64,000 bases of DNA, from positions 31,477-95,476 of the forward strand of contig CAZUJL010000011.1 in assembly GCA_964620045.1 (NCBI GenBank), read 5' to 3'. Below the pieces are notes generated by a model. That model saw only the letters and a list, made by a program, of their open reading frames with translations. It ran no database searches and had not been told where the DNA came from. Positions 4,484 through 23,267 of the stretch are shown here, in pieces. The position numbers were made by a program, and so were the translations under genes. Within the stretch, counting starts at the first letter, position 1, and each line of letters opens with the position of its first letter. This DNA is from an uncultured Nitrospirales bacterium. GTDB taxonomy: Bacteria > Hydrogenedentota > Hydrogenedentia > Hydrogenedentales > GCA-2746185.

Positions 4484-5935
4484 ATGCGCATCACGCGTTT
4501 CATCTGGATCACGATCGCCGTTATGTGTGCCGCAGGCGCAGGGGCACAGCCCACGCCCGCGCGGCCGAATGTGCTGATCATTCTGAGTGACGATCAACGA
4601 GCCGACACCATCTCGGCCTACGGCAATCCACGCATCAACACGCCCAACCTCGATCGCCTCGTCGCGCGTGGATATAACTTTCGCCGCACCTACTGCATGG
4701 GTTCGCCCCACGGCGCTGTGTGCATCCCCAGCCGCGCCATGCTGCTGACGGGCCGGTCGTATCTCCGCATCCCGCTCGACCTCGGCAATGTCGATACGCT
4801 GCCGCAGCGCCTCCGCGCGGCCGGTTATACGACGTTCATCACCGGCAAGTGGCACAACGAAGCACCGAGTCTGCTCAAGAGTTTCGAGCAAGGCCGCGCG
4901 ATCATGCTGGGTGGCATGTCCAACCACGAAGCCGTGCCACTGGCGGATATTGGCGACGGCACACTGGTGAATCAACGTACAGACACGCGGTTTTCGTCGG
5001 AAATTTTCGCGGACACGGCCATCGATTTTCTGAAAAATGCGCCCGCGGACAAGCCGTTTCTGTGCTACGTGCCTTTCACCGCGCCGCACGACCCGCGCAT
5101 GCCGCCGCCGGCCTACCGCGAGAAGTACTATGCGAAGCGTCCGCCGCTGCCACCCAATTTCATGTCGCAGCACCCGTTCGACAACGGCGGTCTGCTCACG
5201 CGCGACGAAAATCTCGCGCCGTGGCCGCGTACGCAGGATGTGATCAGCGATCAGCTCGCGGAGTACTACGGGCTTATCGAGCATCTCGATGTGCAAATCG
5301 GCCGCGTCCTCGATGCGCTGGCGGCTTCGCCTTTCGCGGAGAACACCTACATCGTGTTCGCCGCCGACCACGGCATCGCGCTCGGCAGCCATGGCCTGCT
5401 CGGCAAGCAGAGCGTCTACGAGCACAGCATGCGCGCGCCGCTGATCATCGCCGGGCCCGGCATTCCACACGGCGAGACGCGCGCGCTCACCTATCTGCTG
5501 GACGTGGCGCCCACGCTGTATACCCTGCTCGGCATCGACGCGCCGGGCCCGCTCGACGGCGTTTCGCTCGCGCCGGTGTGGCGTGGTGAAAAATCATCTG
5601 TGCGCGACGCCATCTTTCTGGCATACGAAAACAGCCAGCGCGCGATTGTGGAATCGCAGTGGAAACTGATCCGGTATCCGCTGATCAACTACACACAACT
5701 GTTCGACCTCGCAAACGATCCCTACGAGATGCAGAACCTGGCCGAGATTCCCGAATACGCCGACCGCGTGGACGCCCTGATGGATCGCCTGCGCGCGGAG
5801 CAGGCCCACTACGGAGACGGGGCGCCGCTTACCGTCGAGCGCCCCGCCCGGCGCCAGGTCGACCTCACCGGTATGCGCGGCGAACCCGATCCCTGGCAGC
5901 CCGAGTGGATCATCGAAAAGTATTTCCACCGCTAA
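4484..5935 (+). CDS. Sulfatase (second paralog), secreted
   Basis: Signal peptide. LIILSDDQRAD; C-I-P-S-R signature (AVCIPSRAMLLTG). Confidence 0.85.
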   Translation: MRITRFIWITIAVMCAAGAGAQPTPARPNVLIILSDDQRADTISAYGNPRINTPNLDRLVARGYNFRRTYCMGSPHGAVCIPSRAMLLTGRSYLRIPLDLGNVDTLPQRLRAAGYTTFITGKWHNEAPSLLKSFEQGRAIMLGGMSNHEAVPLADIGDGTLVNQRTDTRFSSEIFADTAIDFLKNAPADKPFLCYVPFTAPHDPRMPPPAYREKYYAKRPPLPPNFMSQHPFDNGGLLTRDENLAPWPRTQDVISDQLAEYYGLIEHLDVQIGRVLDALAASPFAENTYIVFAADHGIALGSHGLLGKQSVYEHSMRAPLIIAGPGIPHGETRALTYLLDVAPTLYTLLGIDAPGPLDGVSLAPVWRGEKSSVRDAIFLAYENSQRAIVESQWKLIRYPLINYTQLFDLANDPYEMQNLAEIPEYADRVDALMDRLRAEQAHYGDGAPLTVERPARRQVDLTGMRGEPDPWQPEWIIEKYFHR

Positions 5936-6066
5936 CAAAGGCACGAATCGGCGCGAGCATCTGCTCGTATAATTGCAAGCGAACATAGTTATCTAGTTCT
6001 AATTATTAGTCTTTCTAAACACTCGGAAATTTCGACGGTTTCGTCGGTCTTTTTGGTGTTCGGGCA

Positions 6067-6095
6067 TTGACAGATCGTCACAGATGTCCTACTAT
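6067..6095 (+). promoter_or_regulatory. Near-consensus sigma70-type promoter (TTGACA, 17 nt spacer, TACTAT) upstream of the cytochrome c monooxygenase-like gene
   Basis: TTGACA at 6067-6072 and TACTAT at 6090-6095, inside a roughly 200 bp AT-rich intergenic stretch. GGGAG lies 8 nt before the ATG at 6144. Confidence 0.4.
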
Positions 6096-6143
6096 GCAAC
6101 GTGGAAAAAGAGGGGACGTTTCGTCCTAATCGGGAGCTCGACG

Positions 6144-7412
6144 ATGATTCGGTTGTCGTATGCAGTCCGCTTTGGCGGCACGCTGCTCGCCTGCGCCTTT
6201 GTTGCGCCGGGCGTGTTCGCTGCGTCGCAAGAAGGCGGCACGGTTACCTACACGAAAGACGTGTTGCCCATCCTGCAGAAAAACTGTGAGATCTGCCACC
6301 GCGCCGGCGGGCAGAACCTCGGCGGCATGGTCGCGCCGATGGCCTTCACGAACTACGAAGAGACGCGCCCGTGGGCAAAGGCGATCGGCAAGGCGGTCGC
6401 CAACAAATACATGCCGCCCTGGCACGCCGCGCCGCAGCACCACGGCCAGTTCGAAGGCGAACGTGGCCTGACCGACGACGAGATTGCCACGATCGTCCGC
6501 TGGGTGGAAACCGGCGCGACGCGCGGTAACCCGACCGATGCGCCCGCTCCGCTGGAATGGCCGCAGATCGATGGCTGGACGATCGGCGAACCCGATCTCG
6601 TGATCTCGATGCCCGAGCCCTATTTCGTGCCGGATGACGTGCTCGACGAAACGAAGTACTTCCCGATGAAGCTCACGGAAGAGATGCTTCCAGAGGATCG
6701 CTGGGTCAAGGCTGTCGAGTTCCGGCCGGACAGCGAAGTGGTGCACCACATGATCGCGTCGCCGTTTGGCGGACTCGCCCCCGGCAACATGCCGATCGTG
6801 TACCAGGAGGGCTACAGCGCGAAAGTAACCAAGGGCGAACAAGTCACTTGGAATATGCACTACCACAAGGAGCCGGGCCCCGGCACAGGCCGCTGGGACC
6901 AGTCTTCGCTCGCGGTGAAGTTCTATCCGAAGGATTACCAGCCCAAGCACGTGCTTTCGCTGATCCCGCTGGGCCCGATGGTGTTTAAAATCCCGGCGGG
7001 CGACCCAAACTATCCGGGGACGGCCGAGTATGTGTTTGCGAAGGACACGCTCATCAATTCGATGATGCCGCACATGCACTACCGCGGCAAATCAGTGCAC
7101 TATGAACTCCTTTATCCGGATGGTCGGAAGGAAACGCTGCTGGACGTCCCGCACTTCGACTTCAACTGGCAGACAACCTACCGCTTTAAAGAGCCCAAGG
7201 CCGTGCCGGCCGGCACGAAGGTGATGATCACCGGTTGGTGGGACAATTCCGCCGACAATATCTGGAATCCGGATCCGACGGCCGATGTGACGTGGGGTGA
7301 AGCCACCCACGAGGAAATGCTCTTCGGCTGGCTCTCCTTCACGAACGCGGATGAGGACGCCACGGCGCACCAGGGCATCCAGAGCTTCAGCGAACTGAAC
7401 GGCGACGACTAA
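6144..7412 (+). CDS. Secreted cytochrome c (CxxCH, planctomycete PSCyt1-like) fused to a copper type II monooxygenase-like (DBH/PHM-like) domain
   Basis: Signal peptide. DVLPILQKNCEICHR heme-binding motif. Histidine clusters are present (VHHM, MHYH, HMH) followed by conserved Met. Confidence 0.6.
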   Translation: MIRLSYAVRFGGTLLACAFVAPGVFAASQEGGTVTYTKDVLPILQKNCEICHRAGGQNLGGMVAPMAFTNYEETRPWAKAIGKAVANKYMPPWHAAPQHHGQFEGERGLTDDEIATIVRWVETGATRGNPTDAPAPLEWPQIDGWTIGEPDLVISMPEPYFVPDDVLDETKYFPMKLTEEMLPEDRWVKAVEFRPDSEVVHHMIASPFGGLAPGNMPIVYQEGYSAKVTKGEQVTWNMHYHKEPGPGTGRWDQSSLAVKFYPKDYQPKHVLSLIPLGPMVFKIPAGDPNYPGTAEYVFAKDTLINSMMPHMHYRGKSVHYELLYPDGRKETLLDVPHFDFNWQTTYRFKEPKAVPAGTKVMITGWWDNSADNIWNPDPTADVTWGEATHEEMLFGWLSFTNADEDATAHQGIQSFSELNGDD

Positions 7413-7433
7413 GACATCGCTACAAATGACAAT

Positions 7434-7476
7434 CGGCCCGCGGAGACGATCTCCGCGGGCCGATTTGTGTTTTTCG
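7434..7476 (+). terminator. Rho-independent terminator-like hairpin (13-bp stem CGGCCCGCGGAGA/TCTCCGCGGGCCG) followed by a T-rich tract
   Basis: Read directly from the sequence, immediately 3' of CDS 6144..7412. Confidence 0.6.
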
Positions 7477-7544
7477 TCCGTTAAACAAAAGTCGACTCAC
7501 GGATGCTTTCATGGTGCTCTGTGGTGAGCTGACGGAGTAGAGCG

Positions 7545-8063
7545 CTAGTCGCCGATGGGAATGGGACCGAGACAATCCAGCAGATCGAGGAGCTCGGATT
7601 CGGCACCGAGTGCGACATAAAACTCTCGGCAGCCAGGGCACACCGTGCGGGACTCAAAACTAAACGCGGATTCGTGAAGTTCGCGGTGCCAATGGAACAG
7701 GCAGTGTCGGCGCGGACACTGGAGATCCTCGGGCTCCAGCAGGGCGTTCTCGTTCAGCGCGCCAAGTTGGGTCCGCGCGACGAGGTAGCACGTCCGCATG
7801 TACTCGATGCTGGAGATGCCCGAGTATTTGGCGAGCTCGCGACTTTCCCGGGTCGTGATGCGCGCGAGATTGCGGTTCACGAGATAGACCGGCCGGGGTT
7901 GGGCTTCGTTTGTGAAGCAGAAGTGCACGTGCTTCACAACGAGGTCCTCTGCATGCCTGGGCGAACCGTGTTCGCCCACGAAAAATTGCGCGAGTTCCTT
8001 CAAATCAATAGCGGACTCATAGGTCGAGTACACCGCAATCGGTTTTGCAGCAGGCATAGACAT
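7545..8063 (-). CDS. Hypothetical protein with a C-terminal Cys/His zinc-ribbon-like motif (CPRRHC...H..H...CPGC)
   Basis: ORF 7545..8273. Sequence upstream of 8063 drops to about 35-40% GC, so the start was set at an internal Met (MSMPAAK). The true N-terminus is uncertain. Confidence 0.4.
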   Translation of the reverse strand: MSMPAAKPIAVYSTYESAIDLKELAQFFVGEHGSPRHAEDLVVKHVHFCFTNEAQPRPVYLVNRNLARITTRESRELAKYSGISSIEYMRTCYLVARTQLGALNENALLEPEDLQCPRRHCLFHWHRELHESAFSFESRTVCPGCREFYVALGAESELLDLLDCLGPIPIGD

Positions 8064-8834
8064 CCACGCATGTGTGAGGTTTACGTTGTAATTACCGATT
8101 TGGTCTAGAACATTACAGATTGCCCACGCAAAATTAGTAAATAGCGACTCAACCGGCGATGTTTTTTCATAATTATTGTATTTATTAGCAGGGCCGAACC
8201 TGTTTGCAGAAACCCGCTGAGGCATGGTTCTAAAGGCCGGGCCCGACACAGCAAGGGGACGAAACGCCCTCAATTTGTTTTGCCGGGACTACGTCGAAAT
8301 GCGGATGCGGTTTCTGGTGCACCGCTCCGGCTGCGACATTGCCGAGGAACTGCTCCACGTTCTCAACCAGGTGACACTACAGTCATTCATGGAGCAACAA
8401 AGGGGCTGTCCAATGGGACCGGAAACCACCGCAGCGATCATGTTCTCTCCAGATCCACTTCCAAATAGTTCCCGACAGTGGCAACGTCACCGTCACGAAT
8501 TTTTTGCCCACGAGAGAAGATTTCTTGAACGCCCTTGGTGGACTTGCGTTCAAGGATTATTTTGGCCGCGCGCGAAGCACGTATTCCGCCGCGGAACTGG
8601 GGCTGTTCGCACGCAGACGGCGATTGGGCGTACTACCACGAAGCTGAAGCGGGTGTTGATGGAAACCGAAGCCCCGGATGTGCCGGACGGCGCGGCCTGT
8701 ATATCGACGGAGACCTCCAAGCAGTGCAACGGCGATTCCGGGGCCAGCGATGGTTGCTGATCCAAACCGGAAAATCTGCTCGGCGAATAACGGAGGGTAT
8801 GCGCGAACGCGCGCATTCAGTCAGACTTAAAAGC

Positions 8835-8911
8835 TGGCGTACCCGGAAGGATTCGAACCTCCGACCTCTTGGTCCGTAGCCAAGCGCTCTATCCAGCTGA
8901 GCTACGGGTAC
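8835..8911 (-). tRNA. tRNA-Arg (anticodon ACG)
   Basis: Manual fold: acceptor stem GTACCCG/CGGGTAC, D-arm GCTCAGCTGGATAGAGC, anticodon loop CTACGGA, T-arm GGTTCGAATCC, genomic CCA. Confidence 0.85.
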
Positions 8912-9086
8912 GCAGGAATGGCAGCCGCAGAGTGTAGCAAATGACGGCGGGGCGCTCAACTGCGCGGGCATCTGGCTGACCTGCATGGAAAATTCCGTGG
9001 CGTCCCTGAATGACCGGGCCTGCGCGAGGCGGACTATCCGTATCAAAGATGAGTCCGCTTCTGGAATTTCGTAGTCTTTCCCTGAC

Positions 9087-9974
9087 ATGGACACTTCATT
9101 GTTGCGGGAAAAACTCGATGCGCTGTATGCGCGCCTCAACCGTCGCGCGTTCGTATCGCCCGACCCGCTCGAAGTCGTGTATCGCTATGAAGACCCGCGC
9201 GATCGGGAGGTTGCTGGATTAATCGCGGCGGGTCTGGCCTATGGCCGTGTCGCGCAGATTCTGCGCAACCTGCATGCCTTGCTCGATACGCTCGGGCCGT
9301 CGCCCGCGGCGCGAATCCGGCAAAAAGGGGGCGCGGCGCTCGCCGGTGCGCCGGAATTTCGCCATCGATGGACCGATGCTGCGGAAATGAGCGCCTTTCT
9401 CGATGCCATCGGCGAAGCGCTGCATCGGCACGGTTCGCTTGAAGCGTGTTTTCTCGCGCACCGTGCGGCGCACGCGGAACACACGCTCGGCGCGCTTGAA
9501 GGATTCACGCGTGAATTGCGCAAGGGCGGTCCGCCCACAAGCTTGCTCTCCGCGCCGGAAAAAGGCAGCGCGTGCAAGCGGCTTCATCTTTATCTGCGCT
9601 GGATGGTGCGCCGTGACGATGTCGATCCGGGTTGCTGGAAAACCGTGTCACCGCGGATGCTGCTCATCCCGCTCGACACGCACATGCACCGGCTTTCGCG
9701 CGCGCTGGGCCTCACCAAACGCAACCAGGCAAACCTTGCGACGGCAATCGAAATCACCGAAGCCTTCCGGCGCATCAACCCGGATGATCCGCTGAAATAC
9801 GATTTCGCGCTGACCCGGCTGGGAATTCGCGGCGAGCTCGATCCGCAGGATTTTCTGCGCGAATGCAATGTGCCACAGGCGCGGTTGCAAAAACTATGGC
9901 CGCGAAACGGGGCTACGCCGCGCGCGCCACGCCGGCCGGGACTGTCGACACGACGGACGTCGCCACGCCCGTGA
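9087..9974 (+). CDS. TIGR02757/DUF2400-family protein (distant HhH-GPD-like)
   Basis: Family recognised by eye, including an Endo III-like LIPLDTHMHRLSRALGL segment. The 3' end overlaps ispE convergently. Confidence 0.5.
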   Translation: MDTSLLREKLDALYARLNRRAFVSPDPLEVVYRYEDPRDREVAGLIAAGLAYGRVAQILRNLHALLDTLGPSPAARIRQKGGAALAGAPEFRHRWTDAAEMSAFLDAIGEALHRHGSLEACFLAHRAAHAEHTLGALEGFTRELRKGGPPTSLLSAPEKGSACKRLHLYLRWMVRRDDVDPGCWKTVSPRMLLIPLDTHMHRLSRALGLTKRNQANLATAIEITEAFRRINPDDPLKYDFALTRLGIRGELDPQDFLRECNVPQARLQKLWPRNGATPRAPRRPGLSTRRTSPRP

Positions 9975-12570: not shown

Positions 12571-14340
12571 TTGGTGGAAAACCCGATCGGTAAAGGACTT
12601 GCAGACTTCGCGGCCGCCCTCAATCGGCTGGACGAAGCCCTCGTCCTTGCGCCCGGCCTACACGATCGTGTGTTCGGTGGCACCCAGCCTTGGCGCGACC
12701 TGCTGACCTACAAACTCGTGCCGCATATGGCGGGCGCGGGCTGCCTGGTCGCGGCGGTGACCGGGGGGACGAACACCGGCAAGTCCACGGTTTTTAACCT
12801 GATCATCGGCCGGGCCGCCAGCCCCATCGTGAACACGGCGGCCGCCACCTGCCACCCCGTGCTCGCGGCAAATGCGCAGCGCCGGGCCGAGTGCCTAGAA
12901 GCCAAGCTGGTGCCCGAGTTCCAGCCGCGTCCACTGGAAAACCCCGGTCAGGCGACCGATGGCAGCTTGCCGGCCGAGGCGTTGTTCGTGGTGCTGGAAC
13001 CGTCCCTGCCGGATCACCTCGTCGTCATGGACACGCCCGATATCGACTCGATCGAAAAGCGCAACTGGGATGTCGCCGCGCATTTGCGCGCCGCGGGCGA
13101 CGTGATGGTGGCGGTGCTCACGGGCGATAAATACAAAGACGAGCGCGTGGTGGACTTTTTCCGGCATGCGGTCGCCGCCGACCGTGTTGTGATCCCGGTG
13201 ATGAACAAGGCCAACCCGGAAAACAGTTTCGATGTCGCGCGGCGGCAGCTCGCCGAGTTCCGCAAGGACACCGGCACAAGCGCTCCGGGATTCACGATTG
13301 CCCACGACTTCCACATCGGCAACAACCTGAAGCGGCCGATCGCGGCGATCGACGGCGCGGGCGATCTGCGCGCACACCTCGAATCGCTGGATGTGCCCGC
13401 GATCAAAGCGCGTGTGTACGAAGGAACAGTCCGCCGTTTCGCCAGTGAAGCGGAGGGGTTTCTTGCCAATCTTGAGATGAATGCCGGCGGCCTGCAACAG
13501 GTCACTTCGGCCTTTCACACGATTGCCGAGACCGCTTCGCACCAGTACGATCCGGCCCCCGGCAAGGAAGTCGGCGGACTCTTCCACGCCTTTGTGCAGT
13601 CCAAGCGCGGGCCGGTCCGCCGCACGATCGGGGCCACCAGCGCCACGTTTGCGCGGGGCGTCGGCGCGGCGGGGCGGTTCGTGCGTTCGGCGTTCGTCAA
13701 GCGCGCCACGATGGACTCGCCCGAAGACGAACAGGCCACGGATGCGCTGCACGCGGTGCACCGTGAAACCATCACGCGGATCGCGCGCGAAACCGCCGCC
13801 GCCTGCGCCGAGCGCGCGCGCACGATCGCCTCGCCGGCGCGCGAGATGATCGGGAATCGTTTCGAGCAGCTCGATGCCGAAGCCGCGGCCGAGGCCGTTG
13901 CCGCGGAGGTATTGAAAGCCGTCCCGGTTTCGGAAGCCTTTGCACAACACGCGCAGCAGATGCTCGAAACCTGGTGGACCGATCACAAAGGCCGCCGCCG
14001 CGCCCTCGAAGCGCTTGACGCGGTGCTCGCCGTGATGCCGGCCGCGATCGCCGCGCCTTTTGCCTTGCACACCGGCGGCCTCGGCGCCGCCGAGGCCGTG
14101 TTGCTGGCGGGACCCGTCGCCGCGCAGTTCGCCACGCGCGTGATGGAATTCCAGTTCGGCGACGCGCTCTTCGATTTCCTTTCGCCGTGGAAAGCCGAGC
14201 AGCAGACACGCCTGCGCGACGCGCTGCTGCGCCATATCGTCCATGCCGGCACGCAGCCGGTGGACGCCGCGGTCGACGCCATGTCTGGCGACAATGCCGC
14301 CCAGCTTAGGAGCGCCCTCGACGCATGCCATACTCGCTAA
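12571..14340 (+). CDS. Bacterial dynamin-like GTPase (first of a pair)
   Basis: P-loop GGTNTGKST, DTPDIDS (G3), NKAN (G4-like), and a long helical C-terminal region. Confidence 0.75.
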   Translation: MVENPIGKGLADFAAALNRLDEALVLAPGLHDRVFGGTQPWRDLLTYKLVPHMAGAGCLVAAVTGGTNTGKSTVFNLIIGRAASPIVNTAAATCHPVLAANAQRRAECLEAKLVPEFQPRPLENPGQATDGSLPAEALFVVLEPSLPDHLVVMDTPDIDSIEKRNWDVAAHLRAAGDVMVAVLTGDKYKDERVVDFFRHAVAADRVVIPVMNKANPENSFDVARRQLAEFRKDTGTSAPGFTIAHDFHIGNNLKRPIAAIDGAGDLRAHLESLDVPAIKARVYEGTVRRFASEAEGFLANLEMNAGGLQQVTSAFHTIAETASHQYDPAPGKEVGGLFHAFVQSKRGPVRRTIGATSATFARGVGAAGRFVRSAFVKRATMDSPEDEQATDALHAVHRETITRIARETAAACAERARTIASPAREMIGNRFEQLDAEAAAEAVAAEVLKAVPVSEAFAQHAQQMLETWWTDHKGRRRALEALDAVLAVMPAAIAAPFALHTGGLGAAEAVLLAGPVAAQFATRVMEFQFGDALFDFLSPWKAEQQTRLRDALLRHIVHAGTQPVDAAVDAMSGDNAAQLRSALDACHTR

Positions 14341-15980
14341 CCGATCTCTTCCGCCAGCTCGAGGGTCTCGCCGCGTACCAAGGACCCTGGGCGCCGCTGC
14401 GGCAGGAAGCCCCGCTGTTGCAGACGCGGCTGGCGGAACTCCGCGAGCGCGAGGTGCGGTTGGACGACCTGCTTGTGGTCGCGCTGGTGGGCGGTTCGGG
14501 TGTGGGCAAATCGACGCTGCTGAACGCGCTCGCCGGCGATGAACTCGCCAAAACGTCCGAGTTCCGCCCCTGCACTTCGGTGCCGACCGTCTACCATCCG
14601 CCGGGCGCGCGTCTGCCGTTTGGCGAAGGCTGGGTGGCGAAATCCGGCTCGGCGCTGGAACATCTCGTGATTGTCGACACGCCCGACTCCGACACGATCG
14701 CGCGCGAGCATCGCGTACTGGTGCAGGCGGCGTTGCGCGAATGCGACTTGATCCTCGTCTGCGCGGATTCGGAGAAATATCTCGACGAGGCCACGTGGTC
14801 GCTGCTGCGTCCGCTGAAGGACGAGCGCGCGCTTGTGTGCGTGGAAACCAAAGGCTCACCGGCGGCCAGCATCCGCGAGGATTGGCTGCGCCGGCTCAAA
14901 GCCGAAGGCTTCCGTGTCTCTGGGTATTTCCGCGTGAACAGCACGCGCACCTTTGACCGCAAGATTTCCGGGCGCGCGCCGGCGGCTGACGAATACGAGT
15001 TCCAGGGTCTTGAGACCTTTCTCGCGAACGAACTGACCGCCGACCGCATCCGCCGAATCAAGCGCTCGAACACGGCCGGGTTGCTGACGAAAACCGTGCG
15101 CACGCTCGACGAGCGCGTGGCCGCGCGTACGCCCGATCTCGCCCGCGCCGATCAGGTATTGCGCGAAGCGGAGACGGCCCTCGCCAAGGACGGTTTCGAC
15201 GTCGTCCGGCGGCGGCTGTTCAGCGAGCCGCATCTGTGGAACTACGCGCTGGGCCGTGAAATCAGCGTGCGCTCCAAGGGCGTTGTCGGCCTGTTGTACC
15301 GCGTGGTGGAGGCTGCGCGCTCATTGCCGGCGCGCTTGGCGGGTTGGTCGCCGTGGTCGCTGCGCTCCACAACCGGCCATCGCGCGGCGACGCTGCTTGG
15401 CGAAGGCGGCCTGCTCGACGCGCCGCTCGATCTCGGCTCTACCGAATTGCGGCGGCGCTTCGACGATCACGCGAGCACCGTGCGTGTGGCGCTGGCCCAG
15501 GCCGGTTTCGATGGCGGCGCGGATACGCAAAATTTTGATCGGTACGCGGCGGTGCTCGCGCGCGGCGTGGAGGAGGTCCTGCGCGGGCCGGCGCGCGAAC
15601 GCGTGGTGGCGCGCGCCCGAATCCTGAGCAGTTGGCCGATCGCGCTGGTGCTGGATGCCGCGCCGATCGCGTTTTTCGGCTACTCGGCGTATGCGCTGGT
15701 GCGCGATTACTTCTCGCAGGTGTATTGGAGCGCGGGCGAACTGGTGCATGCCGCGACGGTGCTGGGCATCATCCTCGCCGCGGAGCTGCTGTTGTTTTCG
15801 ATCGCGACTCGCATGCTTGCGTGGGGCGCACGCACGGGCGCGTCACGCGATTTACGCCTCGCCTTGGCGCCGGGCATCGCGGCGTTTACCGATGAACACG
15901 GGGCCATCGCACACGCGCAGGCCCTCGCCGCGGAGATTCAGGCTATCCAGCACAGCCTCGATCACGAAGCTGCGCGGTAG
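14325..15980 (+). CDS. Bacterial dynamin-like GTPase (second of a pair) with C-terminal hydrophobic segments
   Basis: P-loop GGSGVGKSTLLNAL and DTPDSD. Its start overlaps the upstream stop by 16 nt. Two predicted transmembrane/paddle segments near the C-terminus. Confidence 0.75.
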   Translation: MPYSLTDLFRQLEGLAAYQGPWAPLRQEAPLLQTRLAELREREVRLDDLLVVALVGGSGVGKSTLLNALAGDELAKTSEFRPCTSVPTVYHPPGARLPFGEGWVAKSGSALEHLVIVDTPDSDTIAREHRVLVQAALRECDLILVCADSEKYLDEATWSLLRPLKDERALVCVETKGSPAASIREDWLRRLKAEGFRVSGYFRVNSTRTFDRKISGRAPAADEYEFQGLETFLANELTADRIRRIKRSNTAGLLTKTVRTLDERVAARTPDLARADQVLREAETALAKDGFDVVRRRLFSEPHLWNYALGREISVRSKGVVGLLYRVVEAARSLPARLAGWSPWSLRSTTGHRAATLLGEGGLLDAPLDLGSTELRRRFDDHASTVRVALAQAGFDGGADTQNFDRYAAVLARGVEEVLRGPARERVVARARILSSWPIALVLDAAPIAFFGYSAYALVRDYFSQVYWSAGELVHAATVLGIILAAELLLFSIATRMLAWGARTGASRDLRLALAPGIAAFTDEHGAIAHAQALAAEIQAIQHSLDHEAAR

Positions 15981-17984: not shown

Positions 17985-18209
17985 GCGGAAAACTCCTTCG
18001 CTTTACAGTGGTCGGCGCTGCGCTGCACGTCGCCCCGATACAGGCGCGCATCCAAGCCGAGTAGGCTACCACACGCCGAAAAACCCTTCAAAGCCCGGCC
18101 CGCCTGCGCGGCGAGGCATGCTCGGGCGTCCCGGAGCGCGGCGCGCGCGTTGACTCATGCCGGAACGCACCGTATAATTCCCGTTCTGCCGCAAGACCGC
18201 GTTTTTCGT

Positions 18210-18285
18210 GGGGGTATAGCTCAGTTGGGAGAGCGCTTCGCTGGCAGCGAAGAGGTCAGGGGTTCGACTCCCCTTACCTCCACCA
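18210..18285 (+). tRNA. tRNA-Ala (anticodon GGC)
   Basis: Manual fold: GGGGGTA acceptor, D-arm GCTCAGTTGGGAGAGC, anticodon loop CTGGCAG, T-arm GGTTCGACTCC, CCA encoded. Confidence 0.85.
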
Positions 18286-21565: not shown

Positions 21566-23104
21566 TTACTTCGCGAGTTCGCCAGGGATCGTGATTGTCT
21601 GGCCGTTGCCGATGGGCAGCGTCAGTTTCAGCGCGTCGCCCTCGACGGTGCCGGCGATGGACATCGGATCCTGACCGGGAACCATCGCGGTGCCGGTGAA
21701 GCTGGTGCCGGTCCACACGATGTCCTTCACGGCGGCGCGGCCGACGATCTGGCCGAACTTCACGTACCAGCCGCCTTCGCCCGATTTCGGGATGTGCAGC
21801 GCGCTCGGCTCAAGCTGCGGGCCGTTCGCCTGGATCATTACTTTGAAGACATCGCCCGGGTGCGCCGCGGCGAGTTCCGCGAGCTTCGCGATCACGGGGC
21901 TGTCGGCGGTCGCGTCTTTCGGACTCACGCCTTCGGCCACGACATAGTCCACGAAGCCGATCATCATTTCGTCGTACGACTCGGGACCGAAGCTGATGTC
22001 TTTGGTCGGGTCCGGGTTGTGCGGGTTGTTCGACGAGTTGTCCCAGTGCGCGACGCAATCGATGCGCGAACCCTTCGGCACGGACACCGGCTCGTCGAAT
22101 TCATACACCGTCTGCCAGTTGAAGTCGTACTTGCTCACCTTGAGCAGGTCGCGCGTCTGGCCGTCGGGCGTCGTCAGCGTGTAGCTGAAATCCTTGCCAC
22201 GGTAGTGCATGTGCGGTGTCAGCGTGTGAATGATGCTGTCCTGCGCGAAGGTGAAGGTCGAAGTCGCTTCGTAGTTCGAATCGCCGGCCGGGATGCGGAA
22301 ATCGGCGTTCATCACCCACAGGTTGACGAGCTCCTTCTGCACGTCCTTCGCCTCGGCGAAGTGCAGGCCCACGCGCGTCTTGTCTTTCGTCGCTTCGCCG
22401 GTCAGGTGGTAGTGCATGTCGCCCACGATCGGCTGGCCCTTCTTCAGCAGGCGCGCCGTGCCATCGGGGAAGGAATCCGGGCCCGCGCCCGCGGCCCACG
22501 CGCTGATCCAGCCGTTCGGGTTGCCCTGGCTGCCCTGCCACAGGATCACGTGGTGCACGACCTTCGAGTTGCCCGGGAGAATTTCCACGCCCGTGATCCA
22601 CTTGTCTTCGGCGAAGTCTGTCTTGCCGACGAGGTTGTAGAACTCATCCGAACCGGTCGCCGGGAGATCGATTTCATCGAAGGTCACGACGTAGTCCGGT
22701 TCGCCCAACTGCCATTCGCCCGTCGGGAATTTCGGGGCCACGGGGAGGTCAGACTTGTTGCCTTCCGGCGCGCCGGCCTTCGCCCATTCGAGGATCAGAT
22801 CTTTTTCATCCTGCGTGAGCGAGCGATCGTTCGAGAAAGGGCCAAAGCCTTTGTCGGCATGCCACGGGGGCATCACATTGTCGCCGACATTTTTCTGAAT
22901 CGCCTTCACCCACGGCCGGACTTCGTCGTAGCTCAGGAGCGACATCGGACCAATCTGGCCCGGGCGGTGGCACTCGACGCACTTGGCGTTCATAATCGGC
23001 GCGACGTCTTTGCTGTAGGTCGGCTTCGCGGCGTCAGCGGTCCCGCCGATCAAACCAGCCGCGCCCACCGTGCACGCCGCCACTATTCCCTGAATCGCTT
23101 TCAT
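21566..23104 (-). CDS. Secreted cytochrome c (CxxCH) / copper-monooxygenase-like fusion; paralog of 6144..7412 with an extra roughly 110 aa C-terminal domain
   Basis: Signal peptide, KDVAPIMNAKCVECHRP, the VVHHV / MHYH / PHMHYRGK clusters, and YDFNWQT...WDNSSNNPHNPDP. It is collinear with the protein from 6144..7412. Confidence 0.6.
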   Translation of the reverse strand: MKAIQGIVAACTVGAAGLIGGTADAAKPTYSKDVAPIMNAKCVECHRPGQIGPMSLLSYDEVRPWVKAIQKNVGDNVMPPWHADKGFGPFSNDRSLTQDEKDLILEWAKAGAPEGNKSDLPVAPKFPTGEWQLGEPDYVVTFDEIDLPATGSDEFYNLVGKTDFAEDKWITGVEILPGNSKVVHHVILWQGSQGNPNGWISAWAAGAGPDSFPDGTARLLKKGQPIVGDMHYHLTGEATKDKTRVGLHFAEAKDVQKELVNLWVMNADFRIPAGDSNYEATSTFTFAQDSIIHTLTPHMHYRGKDFSYTLTTPDGQTRDLLKVSKYDFNWQTVYEFDEPVSVPKGSRIDCVAHWDNSSNNPHNPDPTKDISFGPESYDEMMIGFVDYVVAEGVSPKDATADSPVIAKLAELAAAHPGDVFKVMIQANGPQLEPSALHIPKSGEGGWYVKFGQIVGRAAVKDIVWTGTSFTGTAMVPGQDPMSIAGTVEGDALKLTLPIGNGQTITIPGELAK

Positions 23105-23267
23105 CCAATCTTTCCTCCAAAAGTCCCACGCGGGAACGCTGGCCAGTGTAACACCCTTGGCCCGCTAAAGTTTCGTATTCACGGGCCTTTTCGTTAGACG
23201 CGCGACCGTAAACAAGGGTTTCACGCAGAGGGATGACATTTCGTCACACTGGCGAATGGCGCGGAAA

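Follow-up and report, generated by a model that had tools for sequence, protein, structure and literature searches.

Non-coupled binuclear copper monooxygenases are textbook eukaryotic enzymes that depend on ascorbate. How electrons cross the long distance from one copper to the other in PHM and DBH has long been debated, and the His2Met CuM site of PHM is specialized to bind O2 as Cu(I). In a 2020 review of metalloproteomes, PHM and DBM are listed under eukaryotes only (PMC7435645). The gene described here lies on the forward strand of a 64,000-nucleotide stretch of DNA from an uncultured bacterium (contig CAZUJL010000011.1, positions 31,477 to 95,476; hereafter the window), at positions 6144-7412, and encodes a 422-residue protein in which a predicted signal peptide and a monoheme cytochrome c domain precede a dicopper core of the PHM/DBH type. 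On balance, the protein is likely, if far from certain, to be a self-sufficient periplasmic copper monooxygenase that is fed by its own heme. We infer loading with copper and heme, a flow of electrons from the heme to the copper sites and, at the CuM site, the chemistry of an oxygenase.

The identity of the copper domain was settled by structure prediction combined with Foldseek, because Pfam alone could not decide it. An AlphaFold2 (AF2) model built on 50 homologues, with a mean predicted local distance difference test score (pLDDT) of 81.9 and a predicted template modeling score (pTM) of 0.77, shows three helices around the CxxCH motif followed by an all-beta region at approximately residues 150-401. 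Against the PDB, the top 31 Foldseek matches of this model were all PHM or DBH structures (E 6e-12 to 3.5e-9), separated by a gap from the next match at 1.9e-6; their scores are about double that of PNGase F. Profile comparison points the same way, with hhalign aligning 231 columns of a 159-sequence family profile to rat PHM at 98.4% probability (E 3.5e-14). A narrower profile of 50 sequences placed the histidine motifs in register with rat PHM, at an E-value of only 0.047, and HMMER searches of PDB sequences with the single protein or with the 50-sequence profile returned no PHM match. An NCBIfam scan added nothing on the copper part. Together, the model and the alignments support a two-domain beta-sandwich fold and its homology with PHM, DBH and tyramine beta-monooxygenase at their catalytic core. 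A preliminary description, made from the letters of the stretch, had proposed a Cu2-monooxygenase fold; this is the fold that prediction and Foldseek return, and the histidine clusters and the methionine align one-to-one with the CuH and CuM ligands of PHM.

For the residue-level comparison, the sequence of the rat PHM catalytic core was checked against PDB chains, from which the numbering offset was set. In the hhalign alignment, the CuH ligands H107, H108 and H172 of PHM correspond to H201, H202 and H239 of the window protein, and the CuM ligands H242, H244 and M314 to H310, H312 and M392. These residues sit in the motifs that the preliminary description had pointed out in this gene: VHHM holds H201 and H202, MHYH holds H239, PHMHYRGK holds H310 and H312, and the downstream methionine is M392. 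All of them are present, as are the KNCEICHR heme motif and, in the form of a signal-peptide-like N-terminus, the signal peptide that it had also named. Its reading of MHYH as a ligand cluster stands for H239 but not for H241, since among 159 diverse sequences only H239 is conserved and position 241 is most often Thr. Retention of the six putative ligands across the same sequences is otherwise nearly complete, with 157, 158 and 158 for H201, H202 and H239 and 158 each for H310, H312 and M392; in the 50 homologues the five histidines are invariant and M392 is found in at least 90%.

The second-sphere residues Q272, Y275 and E313 of PHM correspond to Q343, Y346 and E391, which are kept in 158-159 of the 159 sequences, and Q170, also in the second sphere, corresponds to N237, a position at which the family consensus is Gln. 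The residues with which PHM holds its peptidyl-glycine substrate, R240, N316 and Y318, align with M308, F394 and W396, which are variable in the family. Because these substrate-holding residues are replaced, the protein is not a PHM orthologue, as far as the alignment tells, and its substrate would not be a glycine-extended peptide.

The heme domain precedes this core. C48, C51 and H52 of the CxxCH motif and M90 of a downstream MPPW motif are invariant in the 50 homologues, and in the AF2 model the domain comprises helices at residues 36-48, 71-86 and 111-122, with CxxCH just after the first helix and a low-confidence loop at residues 54-66. Pfam scores fall below threshold for both Cytochrom_C (20.6 bits for a cut-off of 21.3) and Cytochrome_CBB3 (18.7 for a cut-off of 27); relatives score better, the best Cytochrome_CBB3 E-value being 1.3e-7. 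Searched against the PDB, the family profile weakly matched hydrazine synthase alpha at its heme c domain (E 0.008) and the fused copper nitrite reductase 2zoo at its cytochrome c domain; the latter was also a weak match of the single protein. The domain is probably a class-I-like monoheme cytochrome c with M90 as its distal ligand. Its fusion to the copper domain, which had been proposed for this one gene, proved to be general: CxxCH is carried by 259 of 260 complete homologues and MP[PA] likewise by 259 of 260, directly upstream of the copper core, and almost all of them have exactly one CxxCH. By this conservation the heme domain is an obligate part of the module and not an accident of a single gene.

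The family to which the protein belongs is large. In an exhaustive search of representatives clustered at 50% identity, the number of proteins was 14,409 at E<=1e-3 and fell to 8,277 at E<=1e-10 and to 1,871 at E<=1e-30, and a word-indexed protein search gave more than 5,800 matches. In the databases these homologues are named only as hypothetical protein or as mono/diheme cytochrome c family protein. Species-representative genomes contain at least 595 loci of the family, which spans at least eight phyla. The closest relatives are in Hydrogenedentota (70% identity), and others occur in several classes of Acidobacteriota, in Planctomycetota, Sumerlaeota, Gemmatimonadota, Verrucomicrobiota and Nitrospirales, and in Gammaproteobacteria, for instance Pseudohongiella. 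The DNA of the window is probably that of a Hydrogenedentota-like heterotroph. Tandem duplication is common, with 90 family copies in 65 loci. At loci L002-L004, two tandem members of 420-448 residues (approximately 6371-7717 and 8001-9263) lie amid Planctomycete-like PSCyt2/PSD1 and DUF1501 genes.

Domain architecture varies around a constant center. Among 149 representatives, 66 have the minimal form seen in the window; the N-terminus is extended by about 200 residues in 56, and the C-terminus is extended in 46. The N-terminal extension is an AhpC/TSA/Redoxin domain in about 53 of the 149, whereas the window protein, being of the minimal form, has none. In relatives P0122-P0268 (e.g. P0169, P0181 and P0190) this domain carries a conserved F-x-G-T-x-C-P-(L/I/V)-(A/S) motif, which in a few of them reads CPxC; a further conserved Cys, within G-C-L/I-I-G-R, stands some 25 residues ahead of the heme domain. 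The domains added at the C-terminus include EF-hand pairs, CBM48, TPR, alpha/beta-hydrolase and SGNH domains, and esterase modules also occur in some relatives. Cu2_monoox_C is matched at E<=1e-3 by 25 of 73 scanned relatives (best family E-value, 2.5e-7), and P0169 passes its cut-off with 24.4 bits for a required 23; by these scores the family lies at the margin of what the Pfam model captures.

If the protein is a monooxygenase fed by its own heme, its working cycle can be outlined. The gene would have a transcript to itself, initiated at its own sigma-70-type promoter and ended by a strong terminator. The heme of the exported product would be reduced, one electron at a time, by cytochromes of the periplasm or the respiratory chain and would in turn reduce the His3 CuH site (H201, H202 and H239), replacing the ascorbate of the animal enzymes. 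Electrons would then pass from CuH to the His2Met CuM site (H310, H312 and M392), where CuM(I) would bind and activate O2, leading to hydroxylation of a C-H bond in a substrate other than a glycine-extended peptide. Ascorbate is not known as a periplasmic reductant in bacteria, and the obligate presence of the fused heme c (259 of 260 homologues) suggests that a cytochrome is the donor instead.

Several results weigh against such an enzyme. The Pfam scan proposed in the preliminary description stayed below the cut-off for Cu2_monoox_C, which covers residues 304-371 with 15.2 bits for a cut-off of 23, and, as given above, for Cytochrom_C, and it returned no match to PSCyt1 or to Cu2_monooxygen (PF01082). 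The copper core has no Cys, so the disulfides of PHM are absent. In a comparison of 84 loci, the gene neighborhood gives no hint of a substrate. Finally, the AhpC/TSA thiol-redox domain in about one third of the relatives could mean that the chemistry involves peroxide or thiols and is not an O2-dependent hydroxylation.

The last of these points leads to the alternative that survives best, a periplasmic oxidase, peroxidase or small-molecule reductase in which O2, H2O2, superoxide or a nitrogen oxide is reduced at copper without hydroxylation. An enzyme of this kind would have a protective or respiratory role and would cooperate with the thiol peroxidase-like domain in the longer relatives, in which AhpC/TSA/Redoxin stands directly before the cytochrome c domain (about 36% of the 149 representatives). 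The fusion of heme c to copper nitrite reductase (2zoo) offers a structural precedent, and the Foldseek matches include PHM structures with azide, nitrite, CO and O2, so that CuM evidently accepts small ligands. Yet the window protein lacks the redoxin domain, and all characterized members of the PHM/DBH fold are C-H hydroxylases. The full PHM ligand set, including the Met and the equivalents of Q272, Y275 and E313, is invariant, which argues for conserved oxygen-activation chemistry, and multiple divergent paralogues and tandem copies suit substrate diversification better than a housekeeping detoxifier. We regard reduction without hydroxylation as unlikely, while giving it real weight.

A second alternative reverses the flow of electrons, making the copper core a dehydrogenase and heme c its exit to the respiratory chain. 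The direction of flow is not readable from sequence alone, and periplasmic copper enzymes with c-type cytochromes as acceptors exist, an example being thiocyanate dehydrogenase with cytochrome c552 (PMC9456337). Dehydrogenase chemistry is, however, without precedent in the PHM/DBH fold, and no linked gene for a partner oxidase or acceptor was found in the 84 loci. The specialization of the His2Met CuM site for O2 binding in the Cu(I) state also speaks against it, and reverse flow appears quite improbable. A beta-sandwich that is non-catalytic or differently catalytic, such as a protein that binds or senses copper, or a glycan- or peptide-binding module resembling PNGase F, in either case joined to cytochrome c, would fit the CBM48, esterase or SGNH modules of some relatives and the sulfatases that adjoin the gene in the window and in a related contig, but it is scarcely credible given that the score of PNGase F is about half that of PHM and DBH, that the six PHM metal ligands are invariant and missing from PNGase F, and that no more than 6 of 84 loci have a sulfatase next to the gene. 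The heme-fed monooxygenase remains the preferred reading of the protein.

The coding sequence runs from an ATG at 6144 to a stop codon at 7410-7412, and its features are collected in the table. Another start at ATG 6084, which would give 442 residues, was judged unlikely: it falls within the spacer of the promoter, the orthologous locus of a related metagenomic contig (L001) does not keep it, and its product would be longer than the close orthologues (403-426 residues). The N-terminus, MIRLSYAVRFGGTLLACAFVAPGVFA/AS, has a basic n-region and a hydrophobic core as well as an AxA-like site; it reads as a Sec signal peptide, and export of the protein is predicted. In the AF2 model, residues 1-26 are disordered (pLDDT below 50). 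A lipoprotein signal (LLAC) was considered and dropped as unlikely, because its Cys is not conserved in the consensus of the homologues.

Table. Positions of the gene, its predicted domains and the associated elements in the window
Feature	Position	Strand	Remarks
AT-rich intergenic region upstream of the gene	5936-6143		GC about 0.44-0.50, window 0.62 (composition profile)
Short hairpin CGACGG-TTT-CGTCG, then T-run	6032-6047	+	Terminator-like scan; hairpin and T-run also present in L001
Sigma-70-type promoter-like site TTGACA-17-TACTAT	6067-6095	+	10/12 matches to consensus
Palindrome TGAC-N5-GTCA	6068-6080		Overlaps -35 hexamer and spacer; identical in L001; candidate operator
Shine-Dalgarno-like GGGAG	6132-6136	+	7 nt 5' of ATG 6144; GGAGGAG at equivalent place in L001
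Coding sequence	6144-7412	+	422 residues: predicted signal peptide, cytochrome c with one heme motif, dicopper core of PHM/DBH type
Predicted signal peptide, residues 1-26	6144-6221	+	Cleavage VFA/AS; read from sequence
Cytochrome c domain, residues ~30-130	6231-6533	+	CxxCH 6285-6299 (C48, C51, H52); candidate distal ligand M90 (YMPPW) 6411-6413
N-terminal beta-sandwich of copper core, CuH-type site	6591-6968	+	H201/H202 6744-6749; H239 6858-6860
C-terminal beta-sandwich of copper core, CuM-type site	6969-7373	+	H310/H312 7071-7079; M392 7317-7319
Intrinsic terminator	7431-7465	+	16-bp stem, 11 G-C pairs, 3-nt loop, then T-run
Paralogue, 512 residues, 37% identical	21566-23104	-	tblastn E 8e-83; BLASTP alignment
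Second TGAC-N5-GTCA palindrome	23234-23246		130-142 nt upstream of the paralogue start codon

Upstream of the gene, the TTGACA-17-TACTAT site noted in the preliminary description is borne out by comparison. By itself it is not significant, as a 4-kb scan found one promoter-like site of this quality with 1.2 expected; both strands of the whole window hold only 5. In L001, TTGACA-18-TACTAT stands at the equivalent site with its first 16 bases identical, and the block TTGACAGATCGTCACA...CCTACTAT is nearly base-for-base the same. The orthologue there is 87% identical and its upstream gene is different. Conservation in this related genome supports the promoter at the sequence level. The AT-rich character of the region, which the preliminary description had called unusual, is real (GC 0.44 at 5900-6099, compared with 0.62 for the window) and makes the region one of the 200-bp segments with the lowest GC in the 64 kb, but it is not unique, as several comparable intergenic dips occur in the window. 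The best sigma-70-like match in the window is elsewhere, a TTGACT-17-TATAAT (11/12) at 18150-18178 on the forward strand, just upstream of tRNA-Ala (18210-18285); its sequence and position suggest that the organism really uses this promoter type. A separate observation concerns the predicted 5' untranslated region, in which a small hairpin, GGACGTTTCGTCC, lies at 6114-6126 between promoter and ribosome-binding site, with a sequence that is not conserved in L001.

The palindrome that overlaps the promoter occurs just twice in the window, once upstream of the gene and once upstream of its paralogue. The extended copies read [T/A]TGACA-NNN-CGTCACA and are identical at 13 of 16 positions, and the pair may represent a shared operator. 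The hairpin farther upstream could be either the terminator of the preceding sulfatase gene or a conserved upstream element, and L001 keeps both hairpin and T-run although its upstream gene differs. With its own conserved promoter and a strong terminator after the stop codon, the gene appears to be monocistronic.

The paralogue lies 14 kb away and has an extra C-terminal region of about 100 residues. It keeps CxxCH, MPPW, VVHH, MHYH, PHMHYRGK and DEMM, that is, all heme and six copper-ligand residues, and its Pfam Cu2_monoox_C score is 22.1 bits. In this part of the window, two sulfatases and a short-chain dehydrogenase precede the gene, and a low-GC orphan open reading frame, tRNA-Arg, a DUF2400 gene and ispE come after it. 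Synteny with L001 is seen toward ispE, whereas the immediate surroundings of the gene differ there. The orphan frame (7545-8273, reverse strand, 242 residues) lies with a low-GC patch (0.42-0.47, approximately 7950-8300) between the terminator and tRNA-Arg (8835-8911), and it had no match in Pfam, PHROGs or PADLOC scans. Because L001 has a sulfatase at the corresponding place, the segment looks like a replacement or insertion beside the tRNA. Elsewhere in the window, two adjacent dynamin-like/MMR_HSR1 GTPase genes (12571-14340 and 14325-15980, both on the forward strand) resemble a bacterial dynamin-like protein pair, and their order is kept in L001.

Across the 84 loci, clustering of open reading frames revealed no conserved neighbor gene, and the largest clusters other than the family itself were DUF1501 (9 loci), short-chain dehydrogenase (8) and sulfatase (6). 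Together with the gene's own promoter and terminator, this favors an enzyme that works as a unit by itself. A dedicated operon was dropped for want of a conserved partner in these loci, as was a role in sulfatase maturation through formylglycine formation, sulfatases adjoining the gene in only 6 of them. One local order does recur. In the Pseudomonadales/Pseudohongiella loci L029, L033, L034, L039 and L040, a gene for a DAO-type FAD oxidoreductase comes first, followed by the cytochrome c-PHM-like gene, a gene for a 330-residue secreted protein without a Pfam match and one for a NosR-like membrane protein with FMN_bind and Fer4_5 domains. NosR-type proteins are generally regarded as the electron suppliers of N2O reductase, a periplasmic copper enzyme. 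By analogy, the NosR-like neighbor is suggestive of electron supply to a copper enzyme in this clade as well, and the gene order may mark a dedicated electron-supply or substrate pathway. The synteny is limited to one clade, may reflect phylogenetic inertia and is not generalized here.

Full-text literature searches, whose coverage left out most subscription journals, returned no paper on a bacterial family of cytochrome c-PHM-like fusions. The fold assignment itself is not a complete surprise, since PF03712 already matches some family members. More tentatively, and with doubt prevailing, the gene could be the minimal form of a very large, uncharacterized bacterial clade of PHM/DBH-type dicopper monooxygenases, in which a covalent cytochrome c replaces ascorbate and wires C-H hydroxylation to the respiratory electron pool; such a clade might form a class of secreted or periplasmic oxidative enzymes that has so far gone unrecognized and acts on complex organic matter such as glycans, peptides or aromatics. 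The family is common among polymer-degrading phyla (Planctomycetota, Acidobacteriota, Hydrogenedentota, Verrucomicrobiota and Sumerlaeota), and this, along with several paralogues per genome and occasional fusions to CBM48, esterase or SGNH modules, is why an ecological role comparable to that of LPMOs could be envisaged.

If these proposals are true, PHM/DBH-type chemistry would be widespread in bacteria, and nature would have found a solution for electron delivery that does not need ascorbate. As a single-chain system, the protein could allow transfer from heme to CuH and on to CuM to be followed optically. A self-sufficient C-H hydroxylase driven by a cytochrome could also serve biocatalysis, and the family may mark unrecognized oxidative steps in environmental carbon turnover.

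The known systems close to the protein include bacterial database entries of the type AhpC/TSA - cytochrome c - Cu2_monoox_C, which contain the same module of cytochrome c and copper core at 35-45% identity and of which some pass the PF03712 threshold. What sets them apart from the window protein is an additional thioredoxin-fold domain at the N-terminus, with a conserved G-T-x-C-P motif, and a second Cys ahead of the heme domain. A tethered heme domain as the built-in one-electron donor of a copper enzyme is likewise found in the cytochrome c-fused copper nitrite reductases (2zoo), a precedent in favor of the proposed heme-fed enzyme, and the cytochrome of cellobiose dehydrogenase that feeds LPMOs is another heme domain dedicated to a secreted copper enzyme. 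In these two cases, however, the catalytic copper domains are unrelated, being a cupredoxin trimer and the histidine brace of LPMO, respectively, and the heme domain of 2zoo is C-terminal.

The eukaryotic enzymes resemble the window protein in the catalytic core. DBH, which was compared as one group with tyramine beta-monooxygenase and MOXD1 (structure for the group, 4zel), also has an extra N-terminal domain before the CuH domain, but that domain is a DOMON beta-sandwich and not a c-type cytochrome; DBH further has a C-terminal dimerization domain and depends on ascorbate, and the window protein shows no sign of a phenylethylamine substrate. PHM, the catalytic core of PAM (1phm, 1opm and 1sdw), shares the HH...H pattern of CuH and the HxH...M pattern of CuM at aligned positions, has equivalents of its second-sphere Q272, Y275 and E313 in the window protein, and is recognizably alike in its motifs, with VVHHM for TVHHM, MHY for VHY, PHMHxRGK for VHTHHLGK and EEM for DEM. 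This likeness is retained at an identity of only 14-18%. PHM is an enzyme of secretory granules, whereas the window protein is bacterial and predicted to be exported by the Sec route; R240, N316 and Y318 give way to M308, F394 and W396, the core is without disulfides, and there is no PAL lyase partner. Where PHM uses soluble ascorbate, the window protein has a heme c domain, predicted to bind its heme covalently.

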